DNA of 64,000 nt, from contig JAEUKH010000006.1 in NCBI GenBank assembly GCA_016792845.1, forward strand, positions 62,899-126,898, read 5' to 3'. The notes beneath the pieces are model-generated. The model ran no database searches and was not told the DNA's origin. It saw nothing but the letters and a program-made list of their open reading frames with translations. The position numbers were made by a program, and so were the translations under genes. Within the stretch, counting starts at the first letter, position 1, and the number at the start of each line of letters is the position of its first letter. This DNA is from Myxococcales bacterium (lineage in GTDB: Bacteria > Myxococcota_A > Polyangia > Polyangiales > Ga0077539). Shown one piece after another: positions 34,360-37,713 of the stretch.

Positions 34360-34724
34360 GGGGGCGAAACGGTTTCGACGTGGGTAGTGACGCGAGAGAT
34401 GGCACGACCGCCGGCCCGTAACGGCGTAAATACTACGGAAACAAGAGCTGCGAACGATAACGCACTCCCCTTCGCTGTCGCGGCCTGAAAAACCGCCAGT
34501 GACGCGCTTCCGGCAGCCTGCCTGTGCTGACGTAAGGGTGTAAACGAACAGGCTGGCCCCTCGCTGCGCCCGCAGGGCGAGGGGTGAGAAAAATCTGTGG
34601 GCTGGTTGCCCCGAGAGCCTGTCGATGCGCTCGAAGGGTGACGAGATTTGAGCATCGACTATGTCGTGTAGAAGTCCTCGCTGAGCGCTTGCGGACCCGG
34701 GTTCGACTCCCGGCGCCTCCACCA
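34360..34724 (+). ncRNA. ssrA: tmRNA (SsrA)
   Basis: The 5' GGGGGCGAAACGGTTTCGACG pairs with the 3' CGCCTCCACCA (7-bp acceptor stem with one G-U). T-arm is CCGGGTTCGACTCCCGG. The tag reading frame 34450-34488 encodes ANDNALPFAVAA plus a stop. Confidence 0.93.
34699..34724 (+). repeat. attL-like direct repeat (3' end of tmRNA)
   Basis: GGGTTCGACTCCCGGCGCCTCCACCA is identical to 37688-37713. Confidence 0.85.
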
Positions 34725-34755
34725 AGATTGGCCTTGATCTAAAGGCTTTTGTGAA

Positions 34756-35116
34756 TCACCCCGCGGCTCGCACTGTGTGTATTGCCGCGGGTTCGCCTTG
34801 AGGCAGCTCGAGCGGCCTGACGGCGCCCCGCCGAGCGTCGAGAGAGGCGTCGCGCAGGGGCATCTCGATGGTGGCGTGGCCGAGAAGCTCCTGAACGCTT
34901 TTCAGCGTGGCGCCCCGCATCACGAGGTGGCCGGCGAAGGTGTGGCGCAAGGGAGATTGCTGCGACAACACCGTCGCCGAGCGCTTCTTCGCGACATGAA
35001 TGGATGAGGTCGCAGTCGACCACGACGCTGCGAGGGCGACTGGTGCCGTCGGTGTCTGCATCGACGGTGACCGCAACACCAGGCGAAGGCACGCGTTCAT
35101 CGACGACAATCTGCAT
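34756..35116 (-). pseudogene. tyrosine recombinase (integrase) C-terminal remnant, frameshifted
   Basis: Two overlapping minus-strand frames together give only the catalytic C-terminus, [38 protein letters not shown]. The expected RY (catalytic Tyr) reads RD. No N-terminal or core-binding part is present. Confidence 0.7.
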
Positions 35117-35220
35117 CGAGAGTCCTTCCTACGGGCTCGTGGAGGAAGGGCAGATCGTGTTCGTGAGCCCGATCGTTTTGCGTGTGATCGCTGCGCCGAA
35201 GTAGCGTTCGGCGCGGGAAC

Positions 35221-35934
35221 ATGGCCATCACCGATCGCACACGAAAGATTCTGTGGGCGCGTTCTGCCGGGCGCTGCGCGATGTGCAAGCAGCGCATCAT
35301 CGTGAGCGCGACCGACGCGGACTCCGAGGCCGTTGTCGGCGAGGAGTGCCACATCGTCTCGGGCGTTCCCGGCGGCCCTCGGTACGACCCGTCTCTCCCG
35401 GCCGCCCGTGTGGACGGCTACGACAACCTCATTCTCCTGTGTGGCACCCATCACACGGAGATCGACACGCAGGTCGGCACGTACCCTGTTGCCCGCCTGC
35501 GAGAGATGCGGACGCGACATGAGGAGGCAGTCGCTGCGGCGACCGAACCAACGCGCCCGCGCCCAGGCGATGAAGTGCAACGCGAGGCTGCGATTCCGTC
35601 TCCCGACACCTTCGAGGTAAAGGTGGGGATGATCTGGTCGCAGCGGGCCGACATCGACGCGGGCCACGAGGTCATCCGCTTCAAGGGGAGCTTGCTGGCC
35701 AAGACACGCCGTGAGGATGTGAACGGCCCGACGTGGCGCTGGCTGTACCGGCTACAGAGCGGGATGTACCTCGTGTACATCCGGCGCAACTGGCGGGGCG
35801 ACTACGAAGAGGCGTGGCTCGGGCGCGCTGATCCTGACTCCGAGCGCACGACGCTGACGCTTGACGAGGTACAACAGCAGTTCCGCGAACTCGCTGCGCA
35901 GGCGGGCATTCCGCGCGTTCGCATCGTGGAGTGA
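35221..35934 (+). CDS. HNH endonuclease with an uncharacterised C-terminal domain
   Basis: The N-terminal ~95 aa reads CAMCKQRII...GEECHIVSG...YDNLILLCGTHHTEID (Cys pair plus an H-N-H arrangement). The C-terminal ~130 aa (…FKGSLLAKTRREDVNGPTWRWLYRLQSGMYLVYIRRNWRGDYEEAWLG…) has no recognisable motif. Confidence 0.75.
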   Translation: MAITDRTRKILWARSAGRCAMCKQRIIVSATDADSEAVVGEECHIVSGVPGGPRYDPSLPAARVDGYDNLILLCGTHHTEIDTQVGTYPVARLREMRTRHEEAVAAATEPTRPRPGDEVQREAAIPSPDTFEVKVGMIWSQRADIDAGHEVIRFKGSLLAKTRREDVNGPTWRWLYRLQSGMYLVYIRRNWRGDYEEAWLGRADPDSERTTLTLDEVQQQFRELAAQAGIPRVRIVE

Positions 35935-35968
35935 CGGTGGGCGGTCGGGGCGATCAATGCCGTGCCGA

Positions 35969-36865
35969 TCAGCCCCAGCGCCACGCCGAGGAGTCCCATG
36001 ACTGGGCGCTCCCACGGAGCACAGGGTCGAGGAACGCGCTCGCCGCCGCCGTCACTGCGTCCAGCGTCGGCCACGGGAGGCTGTCAGTCTGTGCGATGCG
36101 CGCGTACGGCGCTGCCCACGCGCTCGGCGGCGCTGGCAACGTCGCGGGGAGCGCGTGCGTGCCACGGAACGCGAAGGTCGCTTCGAGCGCTGCGCGAAGT
36201 CGTTCGCCCTCGAACGATCCCGTGAGCGCGAGCAGCGCCAGGTCCGGCAGGTCCTTCACGCGCGTGTTCTCCCGCGGGCGCGGGAGTGTGTACGCGTGGA
36301 GTTTTTCGGCGACGTGGCTCTCGCGGGGATAGACCCTCAGCCGCGAGGCCGCGATGCCCGCGAACTCCAGGAACGCGCTGCCGGGAAGGATCTCGGGCGC
36401 TTCGACGAGGCGGTCGGCGAACCCTGCATCAACGCCGAAGTGCTGGCCGTAGAGCTTGCCTGCGAGCTGCGCCGACGCGGGGAAGCGCCGCCCCGCGTAG
36501 ACGATGCCTTCGCCCTCGAACGTCGGGTGCTCGGGGTCGGGCCGCACCTCGAAGCGCAGGTGGTCCCCGAGGTCGAGCGCGCACGCCGCGTTGAGCTGCG
36601 CCTCCAGGGCGTCTGGATCGCCGAGCACACGGAGGTCCAAGTCCTTCGTGGTGCGGGCGCGTGCGAGCCGGAGTTCGAGCACCACCCCGCCCTTCACGAC
36701 GACGCGGTCGCCGAGGGCCTCCATCACCCGCGCGAGGAAGCGGTCGAACACCACGAGCTGCCGCTGGCGGTTGATGGGGCGCCCGAGGCGGGTGGCATCG
36801 GCGCGGAGCCGCGCTTCGAGCGCCTGCTTGAACGCGGCCGGGGAGGTGTACGAGCGGGCGGTCAT
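35969..36865 (-). CDS. abiEii: AbiEii/AbiGii-family nucleotidyltransferase toxin (type IV TA / abortive infection)
   Basis: 298 aa. The N-terminus FKQALEARL..., VVKGGVVLELRL..RTTKDLDLRV (KGG and DxD nucleotidyltransferase pattern) is typical of the DUF1814/AbiEii family. Its ATG overlaps the upstream gene's stop (ATGA at 36862-36865). Confidence 0.8.
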   Translation of the reverse strand: MTARSYTSPAAFKQALEARLRADATRLGRPINRQRQLVVFDRFLARVMEALGDRVVVKGGVVLELRLARARTTKDLDLRVLGDPDALEAQLNAACALDLGDHLRFEVRPDPEHPTFEGEGIVYAGRRFPASAQLAGKLYGQHFGVDAGFADRLVEAPEILPGSAFLEFAGIAASRLRVYPRESHVAEKLHAYTLPRPRENTRVKDLPDLALLALTGSFEGERLRAALEATFAFRGTHALPATLPAPPSAWAAPYARIAQTDSLPWPTLDAVTAAASAFLDPVLRGSAQSWDSSAWRWG

Positions 36866-37458
36866 CGGGCGGTTCTTCGGGGCGGTGCGACGCCGGAGGG
36901 AAGGTCGAGGCCGCGGAGATCACCGCGCGTGAAGAGCCCGCGACGCAGACCCCGCTCGATGGCCTGCTGGAGCCACTCGGGCGCGACGTGGGCGGCGACG
37001 CAGTCGCGCAGCGTACAAAGCGCCGAGGTCACCGGCACCGGGCCGCGCAGCACGATGTCGCCCGCTGGGATGTCCGCGTAGGCGACCGCGACGTTCGGCG
37101 GAACGCGCAGCCGCCGTCGCGCGTCGGCGGCCGGGAGGGTCATGTGGACGCGCGCGGGCAGGGCGTCGGCAAGGTCGTGCGCGTGCAGCGCGCTCTCGTG
37201 GCTTACAACACCGCGCCGGTCGGACCAGAGCCACGGCACGACGAGGTCACCCTCCTCGGTCGCGGGGAAGCGCACGAAGCGAAAGATGCCCCGGCCCGCG
37301 CGCTCCAGGCTCCCCCGGTTGAGGTGGTGCTGGAGGAGCTGGAGGGAGTAGCCGGCCTCTCGCGCCTGGGCGGCGGTGAAGTACCCAGCCTGCCCCACGG
37401 CGACGCCGAAGAGCTGGTCGAGGTCGGGCCCGTTGGGGTGGGGGGACGAGAGCAGCAC
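36862..37458 (-). CDS. abiEi: AbiEi-family antitoxin / transcriptional regulator
   Basis: 198 aa. The N-terminal winged-helix-like segment is GYFTAAQAREAGYSLQLLQHHLNRGSLERAGRGIFRF, followed by VVSHESALHAHDLADALPARVHMTLP. This is the typical AbiEi pattern. It is translationally coupled to the toxin gene. Confidence 0.75.
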   Translation of the reverse strand: MLLSSPHPNGPDLDQLFGVAVGQAGYFTAAQAREAGYSLQLLQHHLNRGSLERAGRGIFRFVRFPATEEGDLVVPWLWSDRRGVVSHESALHAHDLADALPARVHMTLPAADARRRLRVPPNVAVAYADIPAGDIVLRGPVPVTSALCTLRDCVAAHVAPEWLQQAIERGLRRGLFTRGDLRGLDLPSGVAPPRRTAR

Positions 37459-37469
37459 GCCACGATCTT

Positions 37470-37486
37470 ATAAAGCGTGGCTTTAT
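37470..37486. promoter_or_regulatory. candidate AbiEi operator palindrome in an AT-rich patch upstream of abiEi
   Basis: ATAAAGC-GTG-GCTTTAT is a perfect 7-3-7 palindrome. It lies 12 nt upstream of the annotated GTG start, within the locally AT-rich CTTATAAAGCGTGGCTTTATGTTGTTGC. Confidence 0.35.
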
Positions 37487-37687
37487 GTTGTTGCAAGCGA
37501 TCGAGACCCTCGTGGTGCGGGAGAGGCGGCTCGTGGCGGTGCCCATCTGGTGCCCAGAACCCGTGGCGACCGCTGGGAAGCGATGGGAAGCGGTGGGTAC
37601 TGGTCGGGGACCGGAAGCGCTGTCCCTGCCGGAGGTTGTGGGAGAAAGTCGTGTGTTGGTACGTAGTTATGCTGCGCAACTCCGGCA

Positions 37688-37713
37688 GGGTTCGACTCCC
37701 GGCGCCTCCACCA
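37688..37713 (+). repeat. attR-like direct repeat (orphan copy of the tmRNA 3' end)
   Basis: Exact 26-bp copy of 34699-34724. The upstream sequence shows only degenerate similarity to the tmRNA 3' domain, and there is no intact T-stem partner or acceptor 5' strand. Confidence 0.85.

Follow-up and report, generated by a model that had tools for sequence, protein, structure and literature searches.

Probable remnant of a tyrosine-integrase element carrying nuclease and AbiE genes at the 3′ end of ssrA in a Polyangiales-type myxobacterium

The ssrA gene, which encodes transfer-messenger RNA (tmRNA), is found at positions 34360–34724 (+ strand) of a 64,000 nucleotide (nt) stretch of DNA from a Myxococcales bacterium (Polyangiales; Ga0077539), assembly GCA_016792845.1, contig JAEUKH010000006.1. 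This whole stretch is termed the window here. The last 26 nt of ssrA are repeated exactly at positions 37688–37713, and the 2,963 bp between the two copies, termed the islet, contain a tyrosine-integrase remnant, an HNH nuclease gene and an abiEi/abiEii operon. The islet is very probably an immobilised remnant of a tyrosine-integrase element that integrated in the 3′ end of ssrA, and it still carries the nuclease and AbiE genes. The integration reading is based on the exact repeat, on the remnant being placed and oriented like the integrases of related organisms, and on synteny breakpoints that fall at the ssrA 3′ end. A preliminary description of this DNA had proposed a decayed ssrA islet with nuclease and AbiE genes, and had considered it self-contained, among the smallest of its kind and a unit with respect to its cargo. 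The core of that proposal is retained on the evidence of the repeat, the integrase geometry and the synteny breaks; the three additional attributes are not.

The source DNA has a G+C content (GC) of approximately 71% and is that of a Polyangiales-type myxobacterium. Its closest SspB relatives are metagenome-assembled genomes of Polyangiales and Myxococcota.

The 26 nucleotide direct repeat

The ssrA gene is intact and was identified both by ARAGORN and by Rfam (RF00023). The Rfam match of 148.8 bits encompasses model positions 1–374, i.e. the whole model, and the tag peptide is ANDNALPFAVAA. The 26-mer GGGTTCGACTCCCGGCGCCTCCACCA is present in exactly two copies in the window, 2,989 nt apart from start to start. 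No additional site with three or fewer mismatches is present in the window, and matches were found in none of 100 dinucleotide-preserving shuffles.

The first copy, at 34699–34724 (+ strand), is the attL core. Of the 5′ T-stem it includes three nucleotides, and these are followed by the T-loop, 3′ T-stem, acceptor 3′ strand and CCA. The repeat had earlier been described as the 3′ half of the T-arm, the acceptor 3′ strand and the CCA; this is correct for the acceptor and CCA portions, however the T-arm portion also takes in the T-loop and the three 5′ T-stem nucleotides. The first 25 nt of the 26-mer are identical in the tmRNA genes of nine relatives.

The second copy, at 37688–37713 (+ strand), is the attR core and is an orphan copy of the ssrA 3′ end. 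As had been noted before, it is not accompanied by a tRNA or tmRNA body. ARAGORN calls no tRNA or tmRNA gene at this position, and the sole Rfam match is to tmRNA at 37613–37713 with 16.1 bits (E = 0.002), against a gathering score of 47. This score is due to the repeat itself. It is highly improbable that the second copy belongs to a functional tRNA- or tmRNA-like gene, or that it arose by chance or by a local duplication without an integrase. The weak Rfam match would agree with such a gene, as would an upstream GGAAGCG that could pair with the acceptor 3′ strand at six of seven positions and a 114 nt stretch that folds somewhat better than its shuffles (z = −2.1). However, the match is far below the gathering score, and a search with 351 nt did not list tmRNA at all but gave tRNA-Sec as the best family (14.6 bits). 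In addition to the negative ARAGORN result, a D-arm, an anticodon arm and a tag region are all lacking and the 5′ T-stem is only partial. A chance repeat is excluded by the shuffles, and the adjacent integrase remnant together with the behaviour of the relatives explains the second copy fully.

The integrase remnant

Positions 34756–35007 (− strand) encode the C-terminal end, approximately 84 codons, of a tyrosine integrase, with the stop codon 31 nt from the ssrA end. The translated sequence matches the tyrosine-recombinase profile PF00589 at 28.8 bits, which is above the cut-off of 27.1 (E = 1.2e-6), although only profile positions 131–161 are covered. By tblastn the remnant displays 70%, 64% and 48% amino acid (aa) identity to the intact ssrA-adjacent integrases at three related loci (L022, L028 and L023, respectively), and nucleotide alignment agrees with this assignment.

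Where the intact integrases of the relatives read MTMRYAHLSPDARR, the remnant has Asp in place of the catalytic Tyr and Ser in place of His II, and it has sustained a deletion of two residues. The preliminary description had recognized a C-terminal recombinase remnant that reads RD for RY, and this is confirmed. It had also placed the remnant in two frames, however the similarity is confined to a single frame at approximately 34756–35007. The open reading frame in the second frame (34739–35116) has no integrase match in Pfam or by tblastn.

About 84 of roughly 400 integrase codons are left. Approximately 80% of the gene has been deleted, and Arg I and Lys have been lost with the ~320 residues of the N-terminal part. 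The remnant thus lacks the complete catalytic domain with nucleophile Tyr that defines a functional recombinase. Because of the extent of this deletion and the replacement of Tyr and His, the islet is not self-contained, as had been claimed, and is predicted to be immobile: it could not carry out its own excision, and unless a helper integrase is supplied, excision is predicted to be absent. The junction predicted for an empty site, where the tmRNA body is joined to the flank that follows attR, is CTTGCGGACCCGGGTTCGACTCCCGGCGCCTCCACCAGGTTTGTTGCTTG, and the predicted junction of an excised circle is ...CAACTCCGGCAGGGTTCGACTCCCGGCGCCTCCACCAAGATTGGCC.

The ssrA locus in related organisms

A search anchored on SspB yielded 18 loci in genome contigs and eight in metagenome contigs. 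In nine relatives sspB and ssrA are syntenic and the tmRNA 3′ end is the same, and six of the nine are long enough to be read downstream of ssrA. Four of the six long loci (L012, L022, L023 and L028) display an intact tyrosine integrase gene immediately downstream of ssrA and transcribed toward it. The integrase stop codon is 27–33 nt from the ssrA end in L022, L023 and L028, which is comparable to the 31 nt of the window remnant. In the distant relatives L007 and L010, ssrA is found with no integrase or repeat within 9.4 kb.

L022 and L023 (Ga0208511_100008 and Ga0208117_100009) share 11,029 bp with 100% identity. This sequence extends to the last ssrA bases, with the break at locus coordinate ~9452, and the two contigs are unrelated thereafter. 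Each has a different intact integrase beyond ssrA. One attB thus appears to be occupied by alternative elements in otherwise identical backgrounds. L010 and L028 display 94% identity up to ssrA and L007 and L010 display 84%, and here again the sequences beyond are unrelated. In every compared pair of relatives the break in synteny is exactly at the ssrA 3′ end. Since integrases adjoin ssrA in four of the six relatives and synteny breaks at the end of the gene, ssrA is, as judged by these alignments, an active integration hotspot in the Polyangiales-type clade.

The ssrA elements of the relatives carry genes for Replic_Relax, a HerA-like ATPase and an HTH_17 excisionase-type protein. When viral contigs were scanned with the relatives' integrase, no match exceeded 32% identity, and there is thus no evidence of a phage parent. 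The presence of these genes and the lack of a close viral-contig counterpart point to integrative mobilisable or conjugative elements, and not to phages, as the probable nature of these insertions.

Mosaic structure of the islet

The islet appears to be a mosaic of three pieces, i.e. the integrase sequence to ~35007, an HNH-abiEii block from 35111, and the abiE cassette at 35965–37502. The non-coding stretch at 35008–35220 contains the junction between the first two and is a probable deletion or recombination joint. It is here, at 35111, that homology with another locus, L031, begins. By blastn, L031 is similar to the window at 35111–36648 with 87% nt identity, whereas the left flank of L031 is unrelated. 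Among the close relatives L031 alone has HNH and abiEii genes adjacent to one another. At L031:402–560 (− strand) there is a small divergent open reading frame of 53 aa (MQRSTVNLNAPPPQFARRQALLVEALRRLG...) that starts at the point where the window homology breaks; only its first two codons are left in the window.

The abiEi-abiEii operon with its ~45 bp promoter (35965–37502) forms a discrete cassette. Copies with 86% nt identity are present elsewhere (L038–L042), in contexts that are rich in the insertion sequences (IS) IS66 and IS110 or that contain ParB/DUF932 and resemble integrative conjugative elements (ICEs), and the homology ends exactly at the cassette borders. Homologues of the nuclease that have the HNH domain alone in common are single genes in variable regions, with no AbiE nearby. 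Because the AbiE cassette recurs alone and the HNH-domain homologues stand alone, HNH and AbiE do not appear to be a conserved unit, and the proposal that the cargo forms a unit is not upheld.

These observations bear on the question of when the cargo was acquired. It is possible, although rather unlikely, that the HNH and AbiE genes are secondary cargo that entered later into a decaying element or into a hotspot downstream of ssrA, so that the islet would be made up of unrelated pieces. Such an acquisition is compatible with the origin of the islet from an ssrA-integrated element. It would account for the piecewise homology, with the integrase ending at ~35007 and the L031 block starting at 35111 next to an unrelated flank, and for the exact borders of the AbiE cassette in its other contexts. 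In addition, the ssrA elements of the relatives contain, over their first 9.4 kb, neither AbiE nor an HNH gene of the islet type, and the left part of the islet differs from the AbiE cassette in GC (0.654 and 0.721, respectively). However, both pieces are strictly between the two att copies, the islet displays no IS, transposase or second recombinase, and AbiE or HNH genes could be situated in the distal parts of the relatives' elements.

The right end of the islet consists of an element-side arm beside attR, at 37503–37687, which is characterized by an inverted repeat and its fold. The inverted repeat is perfect over 11 nt, at 37624–37634 and 37680–37690 (CCCTGCCGGAG / CTCCGGCAGGG), with 45 nt between the arms, and its distal arm extends 3 nt into the attR core. 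No homologue of the 37503–37687 sequence was found. The inverted repeat may represent an integrase-binding or arm site, or a terminator-like element.

An HNH restriction-like gene is found directly outside attR at 38079–39146 (− strand); gene callers place it at 38079–39020 with a 313 aa product. Its sequence matches nearly the whole of the PADLOC profile 'HNH' PDLC04132 (E = 4e-31), and the NCBIfam phosphorothioated-DNA-binding restriction endonuclease at 53.7 bits, which is below the cut-off of 180. Since this gene adjoins attR from the outside, defence-type genes are present on both sides of attR. This raises the alternative that the copy at 37688 is an internal att site of a tandem (accreted) array, with the relic of an older ssrA element beyond it whose distal repeat has decayed. 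The relic would hold the restriction-like gene and an unknown 180 aa gene. The alternative is improbable. It is in agreement with the low GC at third codon positions of the 38079–39146 gene (0.81, cf. 0.80 for the islet HNH gene), with the finding that the genes downstream of attR are syntenic with no relative, and with the tandem ssrA islands that have been documented elsewhere (PMC3146451). However, a scan of the window that allowed up to eight mismatches showed no third core copy with seven or fewer, and there is no integrase trace downstream of attR: a tblastn search of the relatives' ssrA-downstream open reading frames, with the integrases among them, against the whole window matched only 34801–35001. 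The relatives are also too distant to define the native flank.

Points against the integration reading

Several observations weigh against the origin of the islet from an integrated element. The first concerns composition. The GC of the islet is 0.689, compared with a window mean of 0.711 ± 0.020, which places it at the 13th percentile. A low GC is confined to the left 1.2 kb (0.654, 4th percentile), while the AbiE cassette at 0.721 matches the host. A compositional contrast between islet and flanks, which the preliminary description had suggested as a check, is seen in the left part only; the islet overall is not distinctive, and GC is a weak sign of its foreign origin.

A second point is that an empty site was not found. 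An exact search of metagenome contigs with the 25-mer at 37714–37738 gave no matches, and among the genome and metagenome relatives SspB identity does not exceed 76% and synteny downstream is lacking. The lack of an empty site is due to the lack of an islet-free close relative in the searched collections. All other copies from the same species carry the islet. Exact-protein look-ups with AbiEii, SspB, the product of the downstream HNH gene and the HNH homologue P0001 gave this species alone. The copies include contigs from four Logan samples, which do not differ from the window, and a strain of 99.06% identity (L030), which has the same islet with the same repeats. Third, the relatives' elements are seen only in their first 9.4 kb; their attR ends are further out and no element is seen whole.

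The divergence between L030 and the window is patchy. The abiEii genes differ by 2.9% and the intergenic sequence at 39147–39442 by 5.7%, while abiEi and the attR arm are identical. This suggests local recombination.

The HNH nuclease gene

The gene at 35221–35934 (+ strand) is predicted to encode a 237 aa nuclease. Its N-terminal part (aa 1–~120) is a Cap5-type HNH domain, and this is followed by ~110 aa that form a C-terminal domain of unknown fold. PADLOC matches are limited to the N-terminal part, i.e. PDC-M68A (E = 6e-30, profile positions 5–113 of 253) and the SAVED-HNH effector (E = 1.7e-28). In Pfam the HNH domain has a score of 18.2 bits, below the cut-off of 21. The AlphaFold2 model displays a predicted local distance difference test (pLDDT) value of >90 for aa 1–110 and <50 for the C-terminus. 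With Foldseek, the top match in the PDB is 8fmf, a Cap5 protein of a cyclic-oligonucleotide-based antiphage signaling system (CBASS), with E = 1.3e-8 and 31% identity over ~112 columns. Residues C19, C22, C43, H44, N69, H78 and H100 are conserved in the alignment of the HNH family. The earlier assignment as an HNH nuclease gene is thus in accord with the PADLOC E-values (on the order of 1e-28 to 6e-30) and with the Cap5-like predicted fold, but not with the Pfam threshold.

The C-terminal domain is common to only three database proteins, and aa 125–237 have no Pfam match. A fold comparison of this domain is meaningless since the pLDDT is below 50. The rare C-terminal domain on a Cap5-like nuclease is the sole mildly novel part of the islet.

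The nuclease probably acts independently, most likely as a defence effector or a selfish one. Because the predicted protein has no SAVED domain, its activator cannot be a CBASS signal sensed through SAVED. A more far-reaching proposal, to which a low probability is assigned, is that the protein constitutes by itself a new nuclease system against phages, in which the C-terminal domain takes the role of SAVED and responds to a cue of infection, and that its retention beside AbiE in two lineages, the window and L031, could reflect a functional partnership.

The AbiE operon

The two abiE genes are on the − strand. abiEi, at 36862–37458, encodes a winged helix-turn-helix antitoxin/repressor (PF13338, E = 8e-8; PADLOC AbiEi, E = 3.4e-64) and abiEii, at 35969–36865, encodes a DUF1814 nucleotidyltransferase toxin (PF08843, E = 8e-30; PADLOC AbiEii, E = 1.7e-88). 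The reading frames overlap by the ATGA at 36862–36865, as read from the sequence. A translationally coupled AbiEi/AbiEii pair had been proposed for this locus, and the profile matches and the overlap bear this out.

The AbiEii sequence displays the nucleotidyltransferase motifs KGG-x14-DLD (aa 57–76), KLHAYTLPR (188–196) and KDLPDL (204–209). Motifs I–IV are as defined in PMC3985639 and were judged by pattern, without alignment to the Streptococcus agalactiae protein. A sequence search of the PDB with AbiEii gave no match. By homology, AbiEii would be a GTP-binding nucleotidyltransferase toxin, and AbiEi would counter it and repress transcription. Together the two proteins are expected to provide abortive infection and to form an addiction module. 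AbiE stabilises plasmids and ICEs and gives phage resistance (PMC3985639, PMC11062541).

A putative promoter/operator is located at 37459–37502 (− strand). It contains a −35-like CTTGCA and the palindrome ATAAAGC-N3-GCTTTAT (37470–37486), which overlaps a TATAAG −10-like hexamer. The promoter stretch is kept in the independent AbiE cassettes L038 and L040, where homology stops just upstream of it. Scans for sigma-70 promoters and for terminators are uninformative in DNA of 71% GC.

Between the window and L030, the abiEii genes differ at 20 synonymous and five non-synonymous codons, and the HNH genes have four synonymous and two non-synonymous differences. From these ratios the islet genes, which are intact, appear to be under purifying selection, i.e. 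the cargo is maintained by selection. A 90% identical AbiEii sequence (P0090) is encoded two genes downstream of a 602 aa integrase, directly behind a 95 aa open reading frame.

Proposed origin of the islet

The parent of the islet would have been an element with an integrase of the family that is still intact at the ssrA of related Polyangiales. We infer that the attP of this element recombined, by means of its tyrosine integrase, with the segment of ssrA that extends from the T-loop to the 3′ end. Integration would have regenerated the tmRNA 3′ end (attL, 34699–34724) and displaced the original end to attR (37688–37713). Internal deletion or recombination may later have removed most of the element, and with it approximately 80% of the integrase gene, with the probable joint near 35008–35111; the order of the deletions is likewise one that we infer. 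What would be left is the 2,963 bp mosaic with a self-contained abiEi/abiEii operon and a stand-alone Cap5-type HNH nuclease gene. The addiction property expected of AbiE is a plausible reason for the survival of this fragment during decay of the element.

Other features of the region

Directly after the tmRNA 3′ end, and within the islet DNA, there is a small hairpin, GGCCTT-GATCTA-AAGGCT, followed by TTTTGTG (34730–34753). G+C-rich hairpins are found at the corresponding position after ssrA in the L022 and L028 elements. The ssrA terminator may thus be supplied by the inserted element.

An SspB-like adaptor gene is found at 33387–34184 (− strand), directly upstream of ssrA, and is syntenic with ssrA in nine Polyangiales relatives. 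Its position provides a physical link between the tmRNA gene and the adaptor for tmRNA-tagged proteins. The neighbouring gene, at 32633–33343 (+ strand), encodes a RomY N-terminal domain (NF053858, 115 bits). Further away, positions 47061–47161 contain a repeat with a 12 nt period, in six overlapping 41 nt copies (TTGCCGCCGTTGTTGCCGCCGCCCTTGCC...), inside a long open reading frame region; on the − strand it would probably encode a repeat rich in Gly, Asn and Lys.

Comparison with known systems

In 'Traffic at the tmRNA gene', Williams reportedly described, in 2003, the ssrA 3′ end as an integration site of islands and prophages. CP4-57 of E. coli is an element in the ssrA 3′ end. AbiE is well known on mobile elements, and degraded integrases beside tRNA and tmRNA genes are common. 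Among genomic islands the islet belongs to a well-known kind, of which it is an ordinary representative. The claim that it is among the smallest of the ssrA islets has no basis as it is a deletion relic, and with it the descriptions as self-contained and as a unit are unsupported. The islet raises no new mechanistic question.

Islands at ssrA that are bounded by a repeat of the 3′ end of the gene are classical, e.g. the ssrA genomic islands of Dehalococcoides (PMC3146451). As in these, the target gene is kept intact in the window and a recombinase gene is beside attL, and synteny breaks at ssrA with different elements in different strains. Unlike them, the islet is only 2,963 bp in length, has a dead C-terminal recombinase stub, and has no excisionase or mobilisation genes left. 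In addition, the Dehalococcoides recombinase DsiB is a serine recombinase whereas the islet remnant is that of a tyrosine recombinase, and the host of the islet is a Polyangiales-type myxobacterium. The present data document ssrA as an active hotspot in such myxobacteria, used by a recognisable family of tyrosine integrases, and suggest that small cassettes for defence and addiction can remain in fixed form when ssrA elements decay.

The AbiE operon resembles those of Lactococcus and S. agalactiae in that the antitoxin gene is the first of its two genes and overlaps the second by 4 nt, as in the characterised S. agalactiae operon (PMC3985639). It also resembles them in the AbiEi_4 winged-helix N-terminus, the DUF1814 AbiEii with motifs I–IV, the palindrome in the putative promoter and the location on a mobile element. 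The putative operator differs: in S. agalactiae there are paired repeats of 11–23 bp, whereas the islet displays a single short 7-N3-7 palindrome.

The islet nuclease has an HNH domain of the same fold and sequence family as Cap5 (PDB 8fmf, 7rwk). Cap5 however has a chain length of ~370 aa with a SAVED domain, while the islet protein is 237 aa with no SAVED domain and its PADLOC match stops at about position 126 of 368. No CD-NTase match was found among the islet HNH, abiEii and abiEi genes and the flanking genes within 32633–40956 (all compared with Pfam and five also with PADLOC; other islet open reading frames were not scanned). The best PADLOC match of the nuclease is the PADLOC candidate PDC-M68A, and it resembles this family, proteins of ~250 aa with an HNH and a C-terminal domain, in its size, its N-terminal HNH domain and its occurrence as single genes in variable regions; a publication on PDC-M68 was not found in the literature. 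The conserved C-terminal domain of that family differs from that of the islet nuclease. The islet is useful for annotation, with its integrase pseudogene, attL and attR sites and AbiE operon, and is a candidate source for studies in myxobacteria of AbiE or of a stand-alone nuclease that resembles Cap5 in its HNH domain.

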